A stretch of 64,000 nucleotides of DNA. Source: an uncultured Bacilli bacterium. GTDB taxonomy: Bacteria; Bacillota_I; Bacilli_A; RF39; UBA660. The stretch's first letter is position 1. Each line of letters begins with the position of its first letter. This document shows, piece after piece, positions 25,811-39,654 of this stretch. A model generated the notes under the pieces. The model had not been told where the DNA came from. It worked only from the letters and a program-made list of their open reading frames with translations, and did not search any database. Both the position numbers and the translations under genes were made by a program. The stretch is from contig CAKPCB010000002.1 in assembly GCA_934141245.1 (NCBI GenBank), positions 43,076-107,075 on the forward strand. The letters run 5' to 3'.

Positions 25811-26011
25811 ATGACAAAGAAAAACACTAGTAATCAGAAAATACATTGCGATGTTAATAGTTGTATTCATAACGATACAGATAAATGTTGTTGTGAGCTT
25901 GATGAAATAAAAGTTAGCTGTAATTGTTCTGAAGATAATGTAACTGAAAAAAAAGAAACTATATGTGAGAGTTTCGAATGTAATTGTGGATGTAATAACA
26001 AAGCAGAGTAG
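25811..26011 (+). CDS. DUF1540-like small cysteine-rich protein
   Basis: 66 aa with spaced Cys pattern CxVxxCxHN....CCC.....V.C...... repeated; RBS TAGGAGGGAAG. Confidence 0.5.
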   Translation: MTKKNTSNQKIHCDVNSCIHNDTDKCCCELDEIKVSCNCSEDNVTEKKETICESFECNCGCNNKAE

Positions 26012-29451: not shown

Positions 29452-32052
29452 TTAATCTTCTTGTTTTTTCTTACTTAATATTAATGCTATTGTACCAATT
29501 ATGCTAGTATTTGATAAATAATAAGTAGTATAAATACCTGTTTTTGGAGGAGTTATATCCCCTTTTGGTTCAGATACATAATATACTTTAATAACATTAT
29601 CTTCTGTATCATCTATTATTAATGGTGCAGTATCACTAACAAATCTGTAACCAGCTGGAAGCTTCTCTTTATAATTAGTTATAACATCACCATAAGTAAG
29701 ATTTTCAAAATATTCAGTCTTACTACTATCAATGTTACCATCATAATAGTATTCAACACGATAGGTTAAATTATCTTTCTTAGTGTAAATAACATTAATT
29801 ATATTTTCACCATCGATTATAATGTATGGCATGTCAGTAGCAATTACACCACTATTGTAACCTTTTAGAGGTTTATATAAATCTACGTTGATGTCTTCTT
29901 TATTGATAATAGACTCAAATGTTTGATTATTAACTACTTTTTCACCAATAGCTTCAGTATTTAAACTATCCTTGTAGTAAACTACTCTATAAGATAAATC
30001 CGCTTTTTTAGTATAATAGAATATTATTTCCGTATTTTCTTCTTTTAATATAAATTCTTGTGTATCTTCACCTACTACATTATATCCAGAAATATTCTTA
30101 GCTTTTTCAGAGTAAGATTCTAAATATGATTTATTATCTCTATATTCAGTATCAGCTAACTCTTTATCAGTGCCTTCTTCTAAATATTTAACACTGTATT
30201 TAAAGTCATTTCTCTTTTCATAGTAGAATATAACAACTTTATCTTCAGCATCAACTTTAATTTCTTGAGTTTTATTACTTACAAGTTTATATCCATATGG
30301 TGCATCTTTTGCTGTTTCAGTATAAACTTCTTCAAAAGTTTTATCATTTCTAACTTCAGAAGCTAATAACTCTTCATTATTTGCTTTGTCTAAATACTTA
30401 ACTGTATAAGACATATCATCTCTTTTAACATAACATACTTTTATTATGTTATCTTCTTCTTTAATTTCATATGGCATATCAGTTTCAATAGTACCATTTC
30501 TATAACCAATTGAAGGTTTATATTTATTTATATCAATATCAGCAGATTGTATTTTATCTCTGAATGTTTGATTACCTTTAGTGTTATCTGCATCATTTGA
30601 AATTTTTTCTCCATCTTTGTAATACTCAACTGTATATGATAAATCTGTTTTCTTTGTATAAACAACATTTATTATGTCATTTTCACCAGTTACAGTGTAT
30701 GGCATATCAGTAATTATTTCACCATCTTTATATCCATTAGGCTTATATGCATTAATATCTATATCAGATGTCTTAATTTGAGAATTTTTAGACGCTTGTT
30801 TATTCTTAGTTCCTAACAATGTTCCATTTATACTGTCTTTATAATAATTAACTATATATTCATAATCATTTATCCAATATACTTCTGGACTTGTAGGTAT
30901 TTTTTTCTCATCTTTTTGATTTTTTGAATTTTTATATTCTATATTTGCAAAATCATTTGTTCTGTTCCATCCATCTGGCAAATCATCATCTGCTTTAATT
31001 TTGAAGCTTACACTAGTTCCTTGTTCTGTTATTTTATCTATTTTAAACGTAATATTTTTACCTTGTTGTGTGGTTGGAACTGGTGTTGCACTACCATCTA
31101 CGTATGTAAATCCATCAGCTATAACATCTTTAATAACTGCATCTGTACCAGCTGGAACTTCAACTTCAATACTTGAAGTTATATTATCAAGACTTGTAGT
31201 TAATTGCATATAGTTTCTAGCATCAAATTGATGTTTTTTATCTGTTGCTATTTGATTAATTGTATCAACATCATCATCAGAAACGTCAAAAGCAACTGTA
31301 TAGATTTCTATACCATTTTGTTTTGCTAGATTAGCTGCATTAATTGCATCAGCTTTTGGTTTATCGTAGCTTCCATTAATTTCAGGTCTTCCATCACTTA
31401 ACAACACTATAATCATTTTTGTTGCCTTTGATTTATTTTCTAATAATTTTTGTGTTGCCATATTTAGTGCTGCTGCTGTATTTGTATCACCACTGGCATC
31501 TTGCTTAAAATCATCTGGTCTCCAAGTTGAAAATTTCTTACTTTCAAATTTTCTATTTAGTGTTGCTTCATCCGAGAATGTAACTAATCCTAATTGAGCT
31601 TTGTTATATTTTTCCAATATTTTTTCAGAGAAACTTATAGTTGCTTTTTTTGCTAGCTCATACTTTGATTTCATATAATCATCTGGACAATTATACCAAT
31701 CTTTTTCGCACATTAATTCACCAAAATCAGGACCCATTGTACCAGATCTATCCAATACAAACATGATGTATGGAATAGCTTCACTCGATTGTGTTATTTT
31801 CGTGTTTTTTCCTTTTGCAGTTAAAGTAACTTTATAAATTCCATCTTCATCTGTTTTTTCTACTGTTTTTTTAAGTTTTACATCACCCGGATTAGTGGTA
31901 GAACCAACTGTTTTTTCTCCATTTCTTACATCGCCCTTTTTGTATGTTTCTGCAAAAACTGAAGTGGTATAACCGAAGCTAGTAAATAAAACTGTTACTG
32001 CTAGTATTATTCTTATTATTGCTTCAAACTTTTGGCTTATTATTTTTTTCAT
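29452..32052 (-). CDS. Sortase-anchored surface protein: signal peptide, von Willebrand factor A domain, six ~75-aa repeats, C-terminal PPKTG sorting signal
   Basis: 866 aa; MIDAS-like FVLDRSGTMG; repeats beginning Y(T/S/R)V(E/K/V)YY; C-terminus PPKTG + hydrophobic stretch + KKKQED. Confidence 0.75.
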   Translation of the reverse strand: MKKIISQKFEAIIRIILAVTVLFTSFGYTTSVFAETYKKGDVRNGEKTVGSTTNPGDVKLKKTVEKTDEDGIYKVTLTAKGKNTKITQSSEAIPYIMFVLDRSGTMGPDFGELMCEKDWYNCPDDYMKSKYELAKKATISFSEKILEKYNKAQLGLVTFSDEATLNRKFESKKFSTWRPDDFKQDASGDTNTAAALNMATQKLLENKSKATKMIIVLLSDGRPEINGSYDKPKADAINAANLAKQNGIEIYTVAFDVSDDDVDTINQIATDKKHQFDARNYMQLTTSLDNITSSIEVEVPAGTDAVIKDVIADGFTYVDGSATPVPTTQQGKNITFKIDKITEQGTSVSFKIKADDDLPDGWNRTNDFANIEYKNSKNQKDEKKIPTSPEVYWINDYEYIVNYYKDSINGTLLGTKNKQASKNSQIKTSDIDINAYKPNGYKDGEIITDMPYTVTGENDIINVVYTKKTDLSYTVEYYKDGEKISNDADNTKGNQTFRDKIQSADIDINKYKPSIGYRNGTIETDMPYEIKEEDNIIKVCYVKRDDMSYTVKYLDKANNEELLASEVRNDKTFEEVYTETAKDAPYGYKLVSNKTQEIKVDAEDKVVIFYYEKRNDFKYSVKYLEEGTDKELADTEYRDNKSYLESYSEKAKNISGYNVVGEDTQEFILKEENTEIIFYYTKKADLSYRVVYYKDSLNTEAIGEKVVNNQTFESIINKEDINVDLYKPLKGYNSGVIATDMPYIIIDGENIINVIYTKKDNLTYRVEYYYDGNIDSSKTEYFENLTYGDVITNYKEKLPAGYRFVSDTAPLIIDDTEDNVIKVYYVSEPKGDITPPKTGIYTTYYLSNTSIIGTIALILSKKKQED

Positions 32053-32061
32053 AATTTCCTC

Positions 32062-32766
32062 CTATTTGATTTTTTTAGCATTTATAATTAGATAAGAATT
32101 AGCTGGTTTATAATAGCAAGTTTGAAGTGTAATGATTCTATCATCTAATCCAACTTTTATGCCAGTATCATAAATAGCGTTTTTCATCATCCAATCAATA
32201 TGCTCTAACCACTCTTTGTCATTAAAAGTAATCTTCATGTGATAATTGCTTCCTTCTTTTACAATCATTACAGAAAAAATTTCCCATGTTGTTTCTTCGT
32301 TATTTAAAATTAATTTTATATTTTTATTAGATAAATAAAAATCTTTATTTAAATATTTTTCTAACTCATGAAATGGTATATCTTTTAATGTCTTAGAGTT
32401 ATGCCCATAAATTAATAGTTTTCTGTCATAAAGTGTATTCCTATAGTCCATAAAGATACTTCCTTTATAGTCACTTTTTCCATCCGCTGAGTGATCTAGG
32501 TAATACTCATTATTAGTAGATTGTACTAAATCATTATCTATATTTGTCCCAGGTATTTTGATTTTTCCAATAATATCTTTGTTTTTTGTACTTTGCTTTA
32601 CTTCATTAGTATCGTTGGTATTATTAATAATTCTTTTAATTGTATCATAGTTTTTGTTTTCTTTAATTATGCTAGTATGTTCATCAGATATATGTAAATC
32701 AATTATCATCATAACTGCTACAAATATAGATACAAATATACTTAAATTTTTTTTAACTTTATTCAT
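32062..32766 (-). CDS. srtB: Class B sortase
   Basis: 234 aa; N-terminal membrane anchor, LLIYGHN His motif, TLQTC active-site Cys motif; adjacent to an (S/P)PxTG substrate. Confidence 0.75.
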   Translation of the reverse strand: MNKVKKNLSIFVSIFVAVMMIIDLHISDEHTSIIKENKNYDTIKRIINNTNDTNEVKQSTKNKDIIGKIKIPGTNIDNDLVQSTNNEYYLDHSADGKSDYKGSIFMDYRNTLYDRKLLIYGHNSKTLKDIPFHELEKYLNKDFYLSNKNIKLILNNEETTWEIFSVMIVKEGSNYHMKITFNDKEWLEHIDWMMKNAIYDTGIKVGLDDRIITLQTCYYKPANSYLIINAKKIK

Positions 32767-32981: not shown

Positions 32982-34109
32982 TTATCTATCATTACTTTTA
33001 ACAAATTTATCAAATTCTATAGATTCTGGGCTATCTAGCATTGTTTCATTAAGCTGTTCTAGTAATTTTTTCTGTTCTTTACTTAGCTTTTTTGGATTTT
33101 TGACTTCTAGTATTACGTACATATCACCGGTTCTTCTTGTTGACTCATTTTTAATTCCTTTTGCTTTTAATCTATGTTTATCACCAGTATTACTTGCTGC
33201 TGGAATTGTTAATGTTACATTTCCATATAGTGTTGGTATTTCCTTTTTACATCCAAGAATTGCTTCAGTAATAGAAAGAGGAACAGATAAATATATATCA
33301 TCATTATCTCTTTGATAAAATTTATGATCATCTACTATAAATTCTAGATATAAATCTCCTGTTGGACCTCCATTGGCACCAGCTTCACCTTTTCCACTTA
33401 AACGTAATCTGTTTCCATTATCTACTCCAGCAGGTATAGAAACTGTGATAGTCTTTTTTTCTTTTGTATATCCTCTGCCAGAACATTTTGAGCAAGTTTC
33501 TTTATAACTTTTACCTAGTCCACCACATTCAGGGCATGTTGTTTTAGTCATAAAAGAGCCAAAGATTGTCCTCTGCTCTGAAGTAATAGTTCCACTACCA
33601 TGACATTTACTACATACATCTTCATTAAAGCCACCTTTTCCATCACAGTTACTACATGTATCATATACTTCTAGATTCAAATCCTTTTTGCATCCGTAAA
33701 CTGCTTCCTCAAAGGAAAGTCTAACTCTTAATAATCTATCATTACCACGTGTAGCTCTAGAAGAAGAACCACGTCTTGATGAACCAAATCCAAAACTGCT
33801 TCCAAAAATATTATCAAATATATCACCAAAATCAAAGTCAGAAAAGTCAAAACCTCCAAAGCCACCAGCACCTTGACCACCATTTTGATCAAATGCTGCA
33901 TGCCCAAATTGATCATATTGTTTTCTTCTTTGTTCATCTGATAAAACTGCATATGCCTCTTGTGCCTCTTTAAACTTAGCCTCAGCATCTGGTTCCTTTG
34001 AAACATCAGGATGATACTTCTTTGCTAATTTTCTAAATGCACTTTTTATTTCTGCTTCAGTTGCATCTTTTGATACACCTAAAACTTCATAATAATCTCT
34101 TTTTTCCAT
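32982..34109 (-). CDS. dnaJ: Molecular chaperone DnaJ
   Basis: Start moved to [12 protein letters not shown] (RBS AAGGTGAG 7 nt upstream); J domain HPD motif, G/F region, four CxxCxGxG zinc-finger repeats. Confidence 0.95.
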
Positions 34110-34124
34110 AATACATCTCACCTT

Positions 34125-35939
34125 TTATTTTTTATAAGTTAAATAATATAGTTCCTTAAACTGAAGTAATAAATCTTTAAAGGTTTCTATTGAATCTTCA
34201 ATTACCTTTTTATCGTTCATATCAACACCTGCTATTTTTAATTCGTTAACAGGGTAATCTCTGCCTCCAGTTTTTAAGAATTCAATATAGTCTTTTACTG
34301 CATCTTTTTCATTGTTTAATATTTTATTTACAATTGCAGTAGCTGCTGATAATCCTGTAGCATACTTATAAACATAAAAATTGTAATAGAAATGTGGAAC
34401 TTTTTCCCATTCGTATTTAATTAATTCATCAACTACAGTGTCATTACCAAAATATTTTTGATTTAACTTATAATACTCATTATTTATAATATCAGGAGTT
34501 AATATTTCACCATTTGCTTCTAAAGCATATATTTTTTTCTCAAATGATGCAAACATCGTCTGTCTATATATAGTTGTTCTATATAATTCAATAAGTCTAT
34601 TTAATATATTTAATTTTTCAAAATTATCATTACTGTTATTAAGTAAATATTTAGATAATAAAAGCTCATTTACAGTTGATGCAACTTCAGCTACAAATAT
34701 TTTATACTGAGAATATTGATATGGGTTATTATGTCTAGAATAATAACTATGTACAGAATGTCCTAATTCATGTGCTAAAGTTGATACGTCGTTTAACTCA
34801 CCTTGAAAATTTAATAAAATAAATGGATTTGTTGTATAACTACCACTTGAATAAGCTCCACTTGCCTTGGCAATATTAGGATATTTATCTATCCATCTTT
34901 TTGAGAAGGCTTCATTTATTATTGAAAGATAATCATCTCCTAAAACCTTTAGTGAGGAAACGACAAGTTTTTCTGCCTCATCAAATGTATATTTTTTACT
35001 ATCATAATCATCTAAAAGAGATGCATATACATCATACATGTGTATCTTATCCAAATTTAATATTTCTCTTTTTAATTCTAAATAATCATGTAATGGTTTT
35101 AAATTTGATTCTACTGTAGAAACCAAATTATTATAAATGCTTATATCAACATTATCGGCAAATAATGAGGCTTCCAAAGCAGAATTATATTTCCTTAATT
35201 TTGCTAGTGTATTATTAACTTTGATATCATTAGACAACATTAATGATATTGTGTTTTCATATTTTTTATATCCATTATACAAAGTGTCAAAAGCTGCTTT
35301 TCTTACATTCCTATCTTTACTCTTAATATATAATGAAAAATTAGAATCAGTAATTTCAACTAAATCACCATGTTCATCTTTGATTGAACCAAATTTTAAA
35401 TCTGCATTAGAAAATGTATCATAAATGTTTTCTGGAAAAGATAAAGTTTGCTCAAAGCTTGACAATATTTTTTCTTCAGATTTAGTTAATGTATGTATTT
35501 TTTTTCTAAAAATATTTACAAATACAAATTCATATTCTTTAAGCTCTGGTTTTTCAAGATAAAAATTTTCAATTACTGAATAATCATACTCCAACAATGT
35601 TGGAATTATAAATGATGATACTTCACTATATGTATTTATAATGTTATTTATTTTACCAAACATTTTTTGGTATGCTGGATTATTAGTTTCACTATCTTTG
35701 TTTAAATGCGCATACATATACAAATGATTAATTAATATATCGATTTCTTCATCTTTTTTAATTACTTGATATAAATTATCAGCACTTTCCATCATATCAT
35801 TTTTAAACTTGTCAAAGCCATCAATTAACTTAATACATTTATCACAGTCACTATAAAATGCATCATCATTGTTGTATATAGTAGTTAAATCCCATTTATC
35901 AAAATTGTTTATCTCACTTCTAGACTTTATTTTATTCAT
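34125..35939 (-). CDS. pepF: Oligoendopeptidase F (M3B family zinc metallopeptidase)
   Basis: 604 aa; HELGHSVH zincin motif; size/architecture of PepF. Confidence 0.85.
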   Translation of the reverse strand: MNKIKSRSEINNFDKWDLTTIYNNDDAFYSDCDKCIKLIDGFDKFKNDMMESADNLYQVIKKDEEIDILINHLYMYAHLNKDSETNNPAYQKMFGKINNIINTYSEVSSFIIPTLLEYDYSVIENFYLEKPELKEYEFVFVNIFRKKIHTLTKSEEKILSSFEQTLSFPENIYDTFSNADLKFGSIKDEHGDLVEITDSNFSLYIKSKDRNVRKAAFDTLYNGYKKYENTISLMLSNDIKVNNTLAKLRKYNSALEASLFADNVDISIYNNLVSTVESNLKPLHDYLELKREILNLDKIHMYDVYASLLDDYDSKKYTFDEAEKLVVSSLKVLGDDYLSIINEAFSKRWIDKYPNIAKASGAYSSGSYTTNPFILLNFQGELNDVSTLAHELGHSVHSYYSRHNNPYQYSQYKIFVAEVASTVNELLLSKYLLNNSNDNFEKLNILNRLIELYRTTIYRQTMFASFEKKIYALEANGEILTPDIINNEYYKLNQKYFGNDTVVDELIKYEWEKVPHFYYNFYVYKYATGLSAATAIVNKILNNEKDAVKDYIEFLKTGGRDYPVNELKIAGVDMNDKKVIEDSIETFKDLLLQFKELYYLTYKK

Positions 35940-36002: not shown

Positions 36003-37847
<1,845 letters not shown>

Positions 37848-37852
37848 TTATA

Positions 37853-38578
37853 TTAATCTAACTTATTTACTTTTACTTTTGCAGGTCTTATAACTCTGCC
37901 TTTTAATGTATATCCTTTGTTAAAGACTTCCAAGATAACATCATTTCCTTTTTCACTATCCTGAGAAATCATAACAGCTTCATGAATATTAGGATCAAAC
38001 TCTAATCCTAATGATGGTATTTCTTCAACACCAAATTTCTTAAGAACATCTATCAAATGACTATATATTAATTCATAACCTTCATTATATTTGTCGAATT
38101 CTAATGACTGTCCTTTCATATTTAATGCTCTCTCAAAGTTATCAAGAACAGGAAGAATTTCTAATATTAAATCCATATTTGCAAATTTAAGCATATTAGA
38201 TGTTTCTTCATCTTTTCTTTTTCTATAGTTAATTAGTTCAGCTTTTGAAAGCATTACTTTTTCTTCTAATTGTTTAATGCTATTCTTTAATTCTGATATC
38301 TCTTGTTCATGACATTTGCAATTATCCTCAGATTTACAACCACATTCTTTATTACAGTTACAATCATCTATGCAGCCACACTCACAATTATCACCACAAT
38401 TGCAGTTTTCATCACACTTACAATTACATTTATCTGTGCATTCACATTCTTCATGGCATTCGCAATTATCTTCGGATTTACAACTACATTCTTTATTACA
38501 GTTACAATCATCATTGCAATTGCACTCACAATTAGTTTTTTTAACTTCTTTAATTTCCTCTTTTTTGTTTTTCTTCAT
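37853..38578 (-). CDS. grpE: Nucleotide exchange factor GrpE with an atypical N-terminal Cys-rich (CxC-repeat, metallothionein-like) domain
   Basis: 241 aa; residues ~100-241 are canonical GrpE (coiled coil + ...PVLDNFERAL...FDPNIHEAV...); residues 17-93 contain 25 Cys in CxCxC/CxxxC repeats. Confidence 0.85.
   Translation of the reverse strand: MKKNKKEEIKEVKKTNCECNCNDDCNCNKECSCKSEDNCECHEECECTDKCNCKCDENCNCGDNCECGCIDDCNCNKECGCKSEDNCKCHEQEISELKNSIKQLEEKVMLSKAELINYRKRKDEETSNMLKFANMDLILEILPVLDNFERALNMKGQSLEFDKYNEGYELIYSHLIDVLKKFGVEEIPSLGLEFDPNIHEAVMISQDSEKGNDVILEVFNKGYTLKGRVIRPAKVKVNKLD
38299..38530 (-). repeat. Cys-rich coding low-complexity region of grpE with an internal ~72-bp direct repeat (38317-38389 vs 38461-38532, period 144 bp)
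   Basis: Manual alignment of the two units, ~85% identical; encode CECNCNDDCNCNKECSCKSEDNCECHEE / CECGCIDDCNCNKECGCKSEDNCKCHEQ. Confidence 0.85.
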
Positions 38579-38585
38579 ATAATCC

Positions 38586-39569
38586 CTAACTTTCTATATT
38601 TTCTTTTATAAATTCCAGTAATCTAACAACACGATCATATTCCATTCTCTTAGGTCCAACAATTGCAATAGTACCTTCCTCTAAAGGAGTTTTATATTTG
38701 GTCTTAATAACTGTCATATCATCATCTATGTTATTTTCTTTACCTATATAGACCTTAATATCACTATCATTAGTTTCAACCGCATCAATCAAATTATCAT
38801 CATCAAATTTATCAAACAATTCACTTATCTTATTAACATCATTAAATTCTGGTTGCTTTAACATGTTTTTTCTTCCAACAATATCTACATTTTTATTTGT
38901 AAAGCTTGTAAACACATTATAAAATGCATTATAAAGTCTTTCATGTTCTTTAACATACTTACCAATAATTGGTTTAATTTCATATTCAAGTTTTGATGAA
39001 ACCTCATCGATTGGTGTACCAACAATCATATTGTTAATCAAGTCAACTGTTTTTTTAATTTCTTCAGGATTTATATTAGAAACATTTATATTTTTATGTT
39101 CAACGAATCCTTTATCAGTTATCACTATAACTAGCATTTTTTCACTATTTAATGGAACAACTTGTATTTCTTTTAAATTATTTTCGCAAGATGTTTTTCC
39201 AAGTTTTATTGATGTACAATTTGTCATTTCAGATATTATTTCCAAACTTTTCTTAATGCAATCATCTAACTCTAGTTGATTGTTTTTAAAAATAATTTGA
39301 AGCTTAAGCATATCCTCTGCATTCATCTCTTTTAATTCCATTAAATTATCAACATAATATCTATAGCCTTTTTCTGATGGAACTCTACCTGAAGAAGTAT
39401 GAGTTTTTTCCAGAAGTCCTGCTTCCTCTAATAATGCCATTTCACTTCTTACTGTCGCACTAGAACAATTAAGCTCATCACATATTAGATTTGAACTAAC
39501 TGGTTTAGCTAACTTTATATATTCCAAAACAATTATTTTTAATATTTCATCTTGTCTTTTAGTTAGCAC
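38586..39569 (-). CDS. hrcA: Heat-inducible transcription repressor HrcA
   Basis: Start moved to GTG (MLTKRQDEILKIIV..., RBS GGAGGTG 5 nt upstream; the track start is an upstream GTG); HrcA winged-helix N-terminus; followed by grpE-dnaK. Confidence 0.9.
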   Translation of the reverse strand: MLTKRQDEILKIIVLEYIKLAKPVSSNLICDELNCSSATVRSEMALLEEAGLLEKTHTSSGRVPSEKGYRYYVDNLMELKEMNAEDMLKLQIIFKNNQLELDDCIKKSLEIISEMTNCTSIKLGKTSCENNLKEIQVVPLNSEKMLVIVITDKGFVEHKNINVSNINPEEIKKTVDLINNMIVGTPIDEVSSKLEYEIKPIIGKYVKEHERLYNAFYNVFTSFTNKNVDIVGRKNMLKQPEFNDVNKISELFDKFDDDNLIDAVETNDSDIKVYIGKENNIDDDMTVIKTKYKTPLEEGTIAIVGPKRMEYDRVVRLLEFIKENIES

Positions 39570-39580
39570 TTTCTCACCTC

Positions 39581-39607
39581 CTAGCACTCTTTCTTTTCAA
39601 ATGCTAA
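39581..39607 (-). promoter_or_regulatory. CIRCE operator 2 (TTAGCATTT-N9-GAGTGCTAG) between -10 and the hrcA RBS
   Basis: 27-nt inverted repeat, 3 mismatches to TTAGCACTC-N9-GAGTGCTAA. Confidence 0.7.
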
Positions 39608-39611
39608 TACC

Positions 39612-39640
39612 ATTATAATATTATGCTTAGCACTTGTCAA
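39612..39640 (-). promoter_or_regulatory. Sigma-A promoter of the hrcA operon, TTGACA-17-TATAAT (minus strand)
   Basis: -35 TTGACA (revcomp of 39635-39640), 17-nt spacer, -10 TATAAT (revcomp of 39612-39617). Confidence 0.7.
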
Positions 39641-39654
39641 TATATGAGTGCTAA
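39627..39654 (-). promoter_or_regulatory. CIRCE operator 1 (TTAGCACTT-N10-GAGTGCTAA) overlapping the -35 box
   Basis: Perfect 8-9-nt half-sites with a 10-nt spacer. Confidence 0.7.

Follow-up and report, generated by a model that had tools for sequence, protein, structure and literature searches.

A metallothionein-like cysteine array within the N-terminal tail of GrpE from low-GC uncultured Bacilli

What is a dense array of cysteines doing in the tail of a nucleotide exchange factor? The question is raised by the grpE gene in a 64-kb stretch of DNA from an uncultured Bacilli bacterium (contig CAKPCB010000002.1; "the window" denotes this whole stretch, and coordinates are positions within it). 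The open reading frame (ORF), which lies between hrcA and dnaK, encodes a protein whose 25 Cys all fall within residues 17-89, consecutive Cys being 2, 4 or 6 positions apart. The gene and its parts are:

37853-38578, minus strand: grpE ORF including the Cys-rich tail, 241 residues (stop codon 37853-37855)
38531-38578, minus strand: leader, residues 1-16, MKKNKKEEIKEVKKTN, of mixed charge, with the Glu-flanked hydrophobic patch EEIKEV
38312-38530, minus strand: Cys array, residues 17-89, 25 Cys arranged as CxC units with acidic/Asn spacers of 3 or 5 residues, 2 His and no aromatics
37856-38308, minus strand: GrpE core, residues 91-241, comprising the stalk helix (91-131), helices 135-152 and 159-181 and the beta domain (184-238), without Cys

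Cys makes up 34% of the array (25/73) and aromatic residues none of it; against the 1.06% Cys of 18 long ORFs of the window, such a density would arise by chance with a probability of about 7e-31. A preliminary description of this DNA had quoted the peptide exactly, and the Cys-rich N-terminal region that it reported is real, its 25 Cys lying in residues 17-89. Its further statement that the usual acidic, disordered tail had been replaced does not stand: the array is embedded in a tail that remains net acidic (24 Asp/Glu against 14 Lys/Arg, with 2 His), has no predicted fold and keeps its leader of 16 residues. The stalk helix starts at residue 91, one residue past the end of the array, and no internal start codon could free the array as a separate small polypeptide. 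A lipoprotein or secretion signal is dismissed, the leader having no hydrophobic stretch.

By profile, predicted fold and gene context, the ORF product is a GrpE-family nucleotide exchange factor. The Pfam family GrpE (PF01025; Pfam supplied all profile families used here) matches residues 84-239 with 161.4 bits (E = 2e-47, cutoff 25.8), over profile positions 10-165 of 165, and the core aligns with the solved GrpE structures 4ANI (5e-28) and 1DKG (2.7e-21). AlphaFold2, run on a 53-sequence alignment, predicts three helices and strands in 184-238, as expected for GrpE, with a predicted local distance difference test score (pLDDT) of 76-93 for the core, so that the normal coiled coil and beta domain described earlier behind the Cys region are borne out. 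Residues 1-81 have pLDDT below 50 and no secondary structure, which is what would be expected of an array that folds only around metal.

The array is not peculiar to this protein. A whole-protein query returned 4184 GrpE homologues, and the figures that follow come from the best 120, of which 118 were usable. Among these closest orthologues, 72 have at least 6 tail Cys (6-29), 36 have 1-5 and 10 have none. A second set of 80 GrpE loci from species-representative genomes was split at a guanine-plus-cytosine (GC) content of 33%: at least 6 tail Cys occur in 12 of the 39 low-GC loci (<33%), whose labels are uncultured Bacilli, Tenericutes or Mycoplasmatota metagenome-assembled genomes (MAGs), and in 0 of the 41 higher-GC loci (>=33%; Bacillus, Clostridia and others), whose tails are of the ordinary acidic kind with 0-2 Cys. 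The Cys pattern is kept, with changing spacers, across GrpE cores down to about 45-50% identity. On this distribution the array is a lineage-wide feature of GrpEs of low-GC uncultured Bacilli, not a one-off. In a neighbour-joining tree of the C-terminal 150 GrpE residues, Cys-rich tails are found throughout a broad clade, with Cys-free or Cys-poor subclades nested within it; because of this nesting, the tree indicates that the array has been lost, or gained, repeatedly. Two metagenomic GrpEs (L102 642-1280 and L126 14-631) with cores only 36-38% identical, on contigs of 35-36% GC, have 16-17 tail Cys and may represent an independent gain in another lineage. As to the organism itself, the window DnaK shares 92% identity with its counterpart from 'Clostridium sp. 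CAG:710', and the species also occurs in Hadza human-gut assemblies.

Across GrpEs the pattern of the array is conserved while its filling varies. The mean composition of 87 distinct arrays is 32.4% Cys, 14.4% Glu, 13.5% Asn, 12.6% Asp, 6.4% Lys, 5.4% Gly and 3.4% His, with about 0.1% aromatics, and the consensus unit reads C-[N/K/E]-C-[G/N/D]-[D/E]-[E/N/D]. CxC and Cx3C account for 50% and 28% of the Cys gaps, compared with 21% and 10.5% when each array is shuffled 1000 times; 0/1000 shuffles reach the observed values. His is enriched toward the stalk, where 20.5% of arrays have it as the x of their last CxC (2.3% for internal CxC) and 24/91 have it after the last Cys; mixed Cys/His sites are typical for Zn. 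The leaders have a median length of 16 residues and contain a hydrophobic residue in 84/89 distinct Cys-rich tails, usually beside Asp or Glu, and the stalk follows the last Cys after no more than about 3-13 residues.

In composition and motif the array agrees with the operational definition of a metallothionein (Cys around 15-35%, few aromatics, CxC regularity), but it is a segment of a 241-residue GrpE rather than a small free-standing polypeptide of less than 10 kDa. Plant type 1 and type 2 metallothionein domains follow the pattern CxCx3CxCx3CxC. The array shares with metallothioneins a Cys content near 30%, the lack of aromatics, the CxC/Cx3C register, Gly/Asp/Asn/Ser/Lys spacers, a presumed metal-dependent fold and modular duplication; unlike them, it belongs to a co-chaperone and has no detectable sequence-family membership, and its likeness to the plant proteins is most likely convergent. 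Pfam, including the bacterial metallothioneins of the SmtA/BmtA type, gives no match to the array even at E <= 10. With the array alone as query, phmmer finds 0 hits in the PDB and 0 among 1.84e9 representative sequences, missing the array's own cluster too, and a word-index protein search produced 1 candidate, none being scored. Because the HMMER-based tools fail even on the array's own cluster, such profile negatives carry little weight: the empty array-only searches reflect tools that are blind to the array and are not proof that it has no relatives. Literature searches found no paper describing a Cys-rich or metal-binding GrpE, in agreement with the earlier remark that a GrpE of this type is undescribed. 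A 2025 review of GrpE-like factors treats the tail extensively but names neither zinc nor metal, and a cysteine passage in it concerns GRPEL2 (PMC12987570). Cys-rich GrpEs are therefore present in public databases yet, as far as found, undescribed.

Within the window and about 860 kb of related loci, no acidic CxC-rich ORF other than GrpE and spurious frames was found. Two antisense ORFs that overlap the array (38303-38611 and 38316-38582, plus strand; 102 and 88 residues) are dismissed as unlikely genes, being low-complexity mirror images of its Cys and Asn codons. The only other Cys-dense coding ORF of the window (25811-26011, plus strand, 66 residues) is a DUF1540 protein (E = 1.6e-07) unrelated to the GrpE array.

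The DNA of the array shows how it was built. Its two repeat copies, offset by 144 nt, are:

38447-38534, minus strand: repeat copy 1, 88 nt, residues 15-44, 76/88 (86%) identical to copy 2
38303-38390, minus strand: repeat copy 2, 88 nt, residues 63-92, with a 27-nt exact run shared with copy 1 at 38342-38368

Two units of about 72 bp and about 85% identity had been reported here; the repeat is real and the identity holds at 86%, but the copies are 88 nt long. Shorter units of 27 nt also recur, spaced by multiples of 6. The copies are dispersed rather than head-to-tail, which is why Tandem Repeats Finder gives no result for the array. As judged from these copies, the array grew by internal duplication, as had been proposed. 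An explanation at the level of messenger RNA structure, such as a thermometer, was rejected: the 301-nt region has z = -1.53, and 8/100 shuffles fold as well. Rfam has no match in the whole window.

That the array is genuinely encoded follows from independent assemblies. At least 4 samples assembled independently yield an identical protein of 241 residues: ERZ28018341 from the ENA collection, and SRR24987723, SRR14368333 and SRR8845380 from the Logan collection. The contigs are 99.3-99.4% identical to the window, and the 4 differences in grpE are all synonymous third-position changes, 3 of them inside the array; since the same allele differs only in this way, constraint appears to act on the protein and not on RNA. 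With dozens of orthologues sharing the feature, the earlier judgement that it is unlikely to be an artefact is upheld. A 71.7-kb scaffold of the same species has an N run inside the array (L085 2754-2852) with duplicated sequence on either side, and its grpE was called as a 133-residue fragment (P0015); the region is hard for short-read assemblers.

Within the species, the array varies and the core does not. The 90%-identity cluster of the window GrpE has 30 members; the 15 listed are 193, 197, 229, 233, 237, 241 or 247 residues long with 9-27 Cys, and their C-terminal 148 residues differ at 0-3 positions. The clusters of four other proteins of the window, taken as controls, each keep to one length (604, 721, 480 and 416 residues) apart from a few truncated calls. 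The natural alleles form a series of 9, 11, 17-19, 21, 23-25 and 27 Cys. Contigs carrying the 193-, 217- and 247-residue alleles have flanks 97-99.4% identical to the window, and these alleles therefore belong to the same species. The 193-residue allele comes from SRR5580036 and SRR5580391, among others, and the 217-residue allele from the Hadza samples. It had been suggested that orthologous grpE genes be checked for CxC copy number: Cys units are indeed present in relatives, but they are not unique to this protein and are hypervariable (9-27 Cys) even within the species. The 193-residue allele, found on nine contigs, two of them from Logan, is the exact recombination product of the two 88-nt repeats (-144 nt, -48 residues), with its crossover in the 27-nt exact run at 38342-38368. 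Only three 31-mers distinguish its junction from the long allele. Provided that the Logan graph is built with k = 31, the junction 31-mers must exist in the reads, and the 193-residue allele is real rather than a repeat collapse.

Codon changes were compared between the window and the 217-residue allele (L095 1501-2154). There are 16 differences in 50 aligned array codons and 2 in 152 core codons. Among the 18 Cys codons, 6 changes are synonymous (TGT/TGC swaps) and 1 is non-synonymous; among spacer codons, 2 are synonymous and 7 non-synonymous (one-sided Fisher p about 0.02, calculated by hand). These counts are consistent with selection that holds the Cys while the spacers drift or diversify. 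The array also shows an excess of synonymous divergence over the core, which unit shuffling, gene conversion or old alleles could explain.

The same array is found on other proteins. As a substitute for profile tools, metagenomes were scanned with a degenerate DNA expression for CxCx[D/E]xCxCx[D/E]xCxC, which yielded at least 120 loci. GrpE is the most frequent single host (10/120 loci among the matches listed). Hosts confirmed by Pfam include a SlyD-like FKBP isomerase with a C-terminal array, two Thioredoxin_3 proteins, a CusF-like periplasmic copper protein, an FMN_bind protein, a ferredoxin, an AhpC/TSA-type lipoprotein and a SHOCT-domain protein; two further hosts are ORFs without a Pfam match, read as membrane proteins from their hydrophobic stretches. 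The metagenomic loci of four of these are:

L195 2248-2901: SlyD-like FKBP isomerase
L125 10818-11156: Thioredoxin_3 protein
L199 2465-2782: Thioredoxin_3 protein
L196 11929-12297: CusF-like protein

Judged by these hosts, the array is a reusable tail module, and many of its carriers are metal or redox proteins. It forms a terminal tail on the SlyD-like, CusF-like, two Thioredoxin_3, AhpC/TSA and ferredoxin hosts, every one of them a metal or redox protein. On a contig of 27% GC, an ORF without a Pfam match (L147 202-1164) has an N-terminal CNCGEKCNCGDNCNCGEKCNC array right before a hydrophobic stretch that looks transmembrane.

The expression of the Cys-rich GrpE can be read from its surroundings:

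38586-39587, minus strand: hrcA (Pfam HrcA, 1.6e-46), 333 residues as listed, 327 on other contigs with a start 6 codons later
36003-37832, minus strand: dnaK, 609 residues (HSP70, 3e-247)
32982-34121, minus strand: dnaJ, with a normal CXXCXGXG zinc-finger domain
39612-39640, minus strand: promoter-like site TTGACA-17-TATAAT upstream of hrcA, 12/12 consensus matches
39627-39654, no strand assigned: CIRCE-like inverted repeat 1, TTAGCACTC...AAGTGCTAA, overlapping the -35 hexamer
39581-39607, no strand assigned: CIRCE-like inverted repeat 2, departing from the consensus at 3 positions, between the -10 hexamer and the ribosome-binding site of hrcA

hrcA ends 7 nt upstream of grpE and dnaK begins 20 nt downstream. 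The gene order hrcA-grpE-dnaK with CIRCE-like sites is the typical Firmicutes context, and the clean frame in an intact operon that had been described is confirmed by the Pfam matches of hrcA and dnaK on either side. The repeat at 39627-39654 was listed by the scan as a terminator-like hairpin, and its reading as an operator rests on its sequence. By sequence, the Cys-rich GrpE is made from a classical heat-shock operon controlled by HrcA; stress induction is predicted because a perfect promoter and two CIRCE-like sites precede hrcA. Farther along the same strand, a gene for an M3 oligoendopeptidase F (pepF, 34125-35939, minus strand) is inserted between dnaK and dnaJ, breaking their usual adjacency. 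Just downstream of dnaJ are genes for a sortase and an 866-residue VWA-domain protein (29452-32766, minus strand), which indicate a walled Gram-positive organism despite the 26% GC and the 'Tenericutes' labels of related MAGs.

What, then, would such a tail do? From sequence and analogy, we see about an even chance that its main function is metal-thiolate binding, by which it would buffer or store thiophilic metals on an abundant, stress-induced protein. The CxC array would bind Zn(II), Cu(I) and Cd(II) as metal-thiolate clusters. In mammalian metallothionein, 20 Cys bind 7 divalent ions; scaled from this ratio, each GrpE chain would hold about 8-9, and in the dimer the pair of arrays would leave the base of the coiled-coil stalk next to each other. 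Under a CIRCE/HrcA-controlled promoter, more metal and thiol buffering would be supplied just when proteins misfold, and the capacity of a strain could be tuned by unequal recombination among the internal repeats. A span of 9-27 Cys on an unchanged core fits a function of this capacity type, as in the modular expansions of metallothioneins. In addition, as the array separates the leader patch from the stalk, its state (apo and unfolded, metal-compacted or disulfide-linked) might secondarily change the reach of the tail to the substrate-binding domain of DnaK. The metal or redox role proposed earlier is plausible, and composition, pattern and the other host proteins lend it indirect support.

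The proposed sequestration or buffering would resemble what the tail of HspA does for nickel, and the tail of SlyD. In Helicobacter pylori, the HspA tail sequesters nickel and aids metal resistance and metalloenzyme maturation (PMC4671568). HspA, a GroES, is likewise a heat-shock co-chaperone with a lineage-specific terminal tail, rich in metal ligands, on a normal fold. However, its tail is C-terminal, consists mainly of His with few Cys and is specific for Ni, whereas the GrpE array is N-terminal, contains 32-34% Cys in CxC units and little His, is much longer and varies between strains; without the His/Cys-rich GroES C-terminus of the HspA type, the window GrpE is a functional analogue only and not a homologue. 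A natural chimera of thioredoxin and metallothionein, TrxA of Runella aurantiaca, binds heavy metals (PMC13578184). In SlyD and in this chimera too, a Cys/His-rich tail is a reusable module on folding or redox proteins, but the hosts are different and no link to the Hsp70 cycle is described for them.

Several observations weigh against a metal-buffering tail. The array matches no Pfam metallothionein family and no solved structure, a weak negative for the reasons given above. It is evolutionarily dispensable, with Cys-free subclades nested among Cys-rich ones, and one common allele of the species keeps only 9 Cys. AT-rich codons favour the spacer residues Asn, Lys, Asp and Glu, and with internal repeats that promote slippage and recombination, some of the length variation may be driven by mutation rather than selected. 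The codon comparison between the window and L095 may, moreover, align non-orthologous units.

Tentatively, the array could instead be mainly a regulatory switch: oxidation or metal loading would reshape or cross-link the tails and thereby tune nucleotide exchange or substrate release, making GrpE a redox or metal sensor of the Hsp70 cycle. Yeast Mge1 senses oxidants through a Met and vertebrate GRPEL2 through a Cys pair, both in the folded part. The window GrpE would resemble them as a GrpE-family exchange factor responsive to oxidants; unlike theirs, its folded core (91-241) has no Cys, all 25 lying in residues 17-89, and the candidate sensor would be the tail array. GrpE homologues are known stress sensors: besides thermosensing, Mge1 is reported to be an oxidative sensor (PMC3596242), and GRPEL2 is regulated by disulfides (PMC6089081; PMC12987570). 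In the E. coli GrpE tail, a Glu-flanked hydrophobic motif transiently occupies the substrate site of DnaK and lowers its substrate affinity (PMC12915176). This tail (residues 1-33) is, like that of the window GrpE, disordered, acidic and placed before the stalk; a similar leader patch and net acidity are retained in the window protein, but with a 73-residue Cys array inserted between leader and stalk. EEIKEV, N-terminal to the array, is a candidate counterpart of the motif that binds the DnaK substrate-binding domain. With a hydrophobic residue kept in 84/89 leaders, the array would form a tether between motif and stalk, and as it abuts the stalk within about 3-13 residues, the 50 Cys of a dimer would be close together. 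Against a switch, a defined architecture would be expected, yet Cys counts span a three-fold range in a single species and run from 6 to 29 among species, and nested clades have lost the array. A switch would need no more than a handful of Cys, and the core is without conserved Cys, so there is no homology to the mechanisms of GRPEL2 or Mge1. A specific form, a metal- or redox-gated tether, is doubtful. The reduced apo form would let the patch reach the DnaK substrate site and promote release, metal or a disulfide would compact or cross-link both tails of the dimer and withdraw the patch so that DnaK holds its clients during metal or oxidative stress, and the length of the array, differing between strains through repeat recombination, would set capacity or threshold.

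It is unlikely that the array is a tolerated, functionless low-complexity expansion of a disordered tail under weak constraint, produced by slippage and recombination in an AT-rich genome with Cys hitch-hiking in the amplified unit. Internal repeats and recombination alleles are directly seen, array lengths differ widely within the species, against the uniform lengths of other window proteins, the array is absent from nested subclades, and its spacers use AT-rich codons; GrpE tails are, moreover, known for poor conservation (PMC12987570). Neutral expansion accords poorly, however, with Cys at 32% of arrays and 1.06% of window proteins, or with a CxC/Cx3C register kept far beyond shuffles despite differing spacers and units. 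Synonymous changes dominate the Cys codons and non-synonymous ones the spacer codons, decay products (C-to-Y or C-to-S) are rare, and all length alleles observed are in frame, although these were drawn from called proteins, among which frameshifted alleles are under-sampled. The motif also recurs on metal and redox proteins, and a distant GrpE group (core 36-38% identical) has the array as well.

Less probable by far is that the array holds another cofactor, haem or an Fe-S cluster, or that it provides sacrificial thiols or an antioxidant buffer to an anaerobe without low-molecular-weight thiols. The very high thiol density on a stress-induced protein of a gut anaerobe would suit such a role, as would the similar tails on ferredoxin-like and AhpC/TSA-like proteins. 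CxC/Cx3C with acidic spacers is, however, not a known Fe-S motif; 4Fe-4S ferredoxins use CxxCxxCxxxC. Finally, an assembly artefact or frameshifted non-coding sequence, for which the N run and the 133-residue call on the 71.7-kb scaffold could be cited, is so improbable as to be negligible, given the identical protein in at least 4 independent ENA and Logan samples, with only synonymous grpE differences, and the dozens of orthologues with the array.

For the metal-binding tail and its rivals alike, the observation stands that a gut-bacterial lineage has turned the GrpE tail into a dense Cys array, by sequence under heat-shock control, with a three-fold range of Cys numbers in one species. Profile tools return nothing for such arrays, a blind spot that may explain why entries named "nucleotide exchange factor GrpE" carry no annotation of them. 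For experiments, the natural alleles supply a ready dose series. GrpE is among the best-studied co-chaperones, and debate continues over the role of its disordered N-terminal tail, which the 2025 review calls unresolved (PMC12987570). If the tether is real, it would give the bacterial Hsp70 cycle a new and direct chemical input and would offer a natural handle on that role. If the array binds metal, GrpE would be the second case, after Helicobacter HspA, of a core chaperone machine acting as a metal buffer, and the first for the Hsp70 system; in gut anaerobes, proteotoxic stress would then be tied to Zn, Cu or Cd load or to oxidative stress in a way that can be tested.

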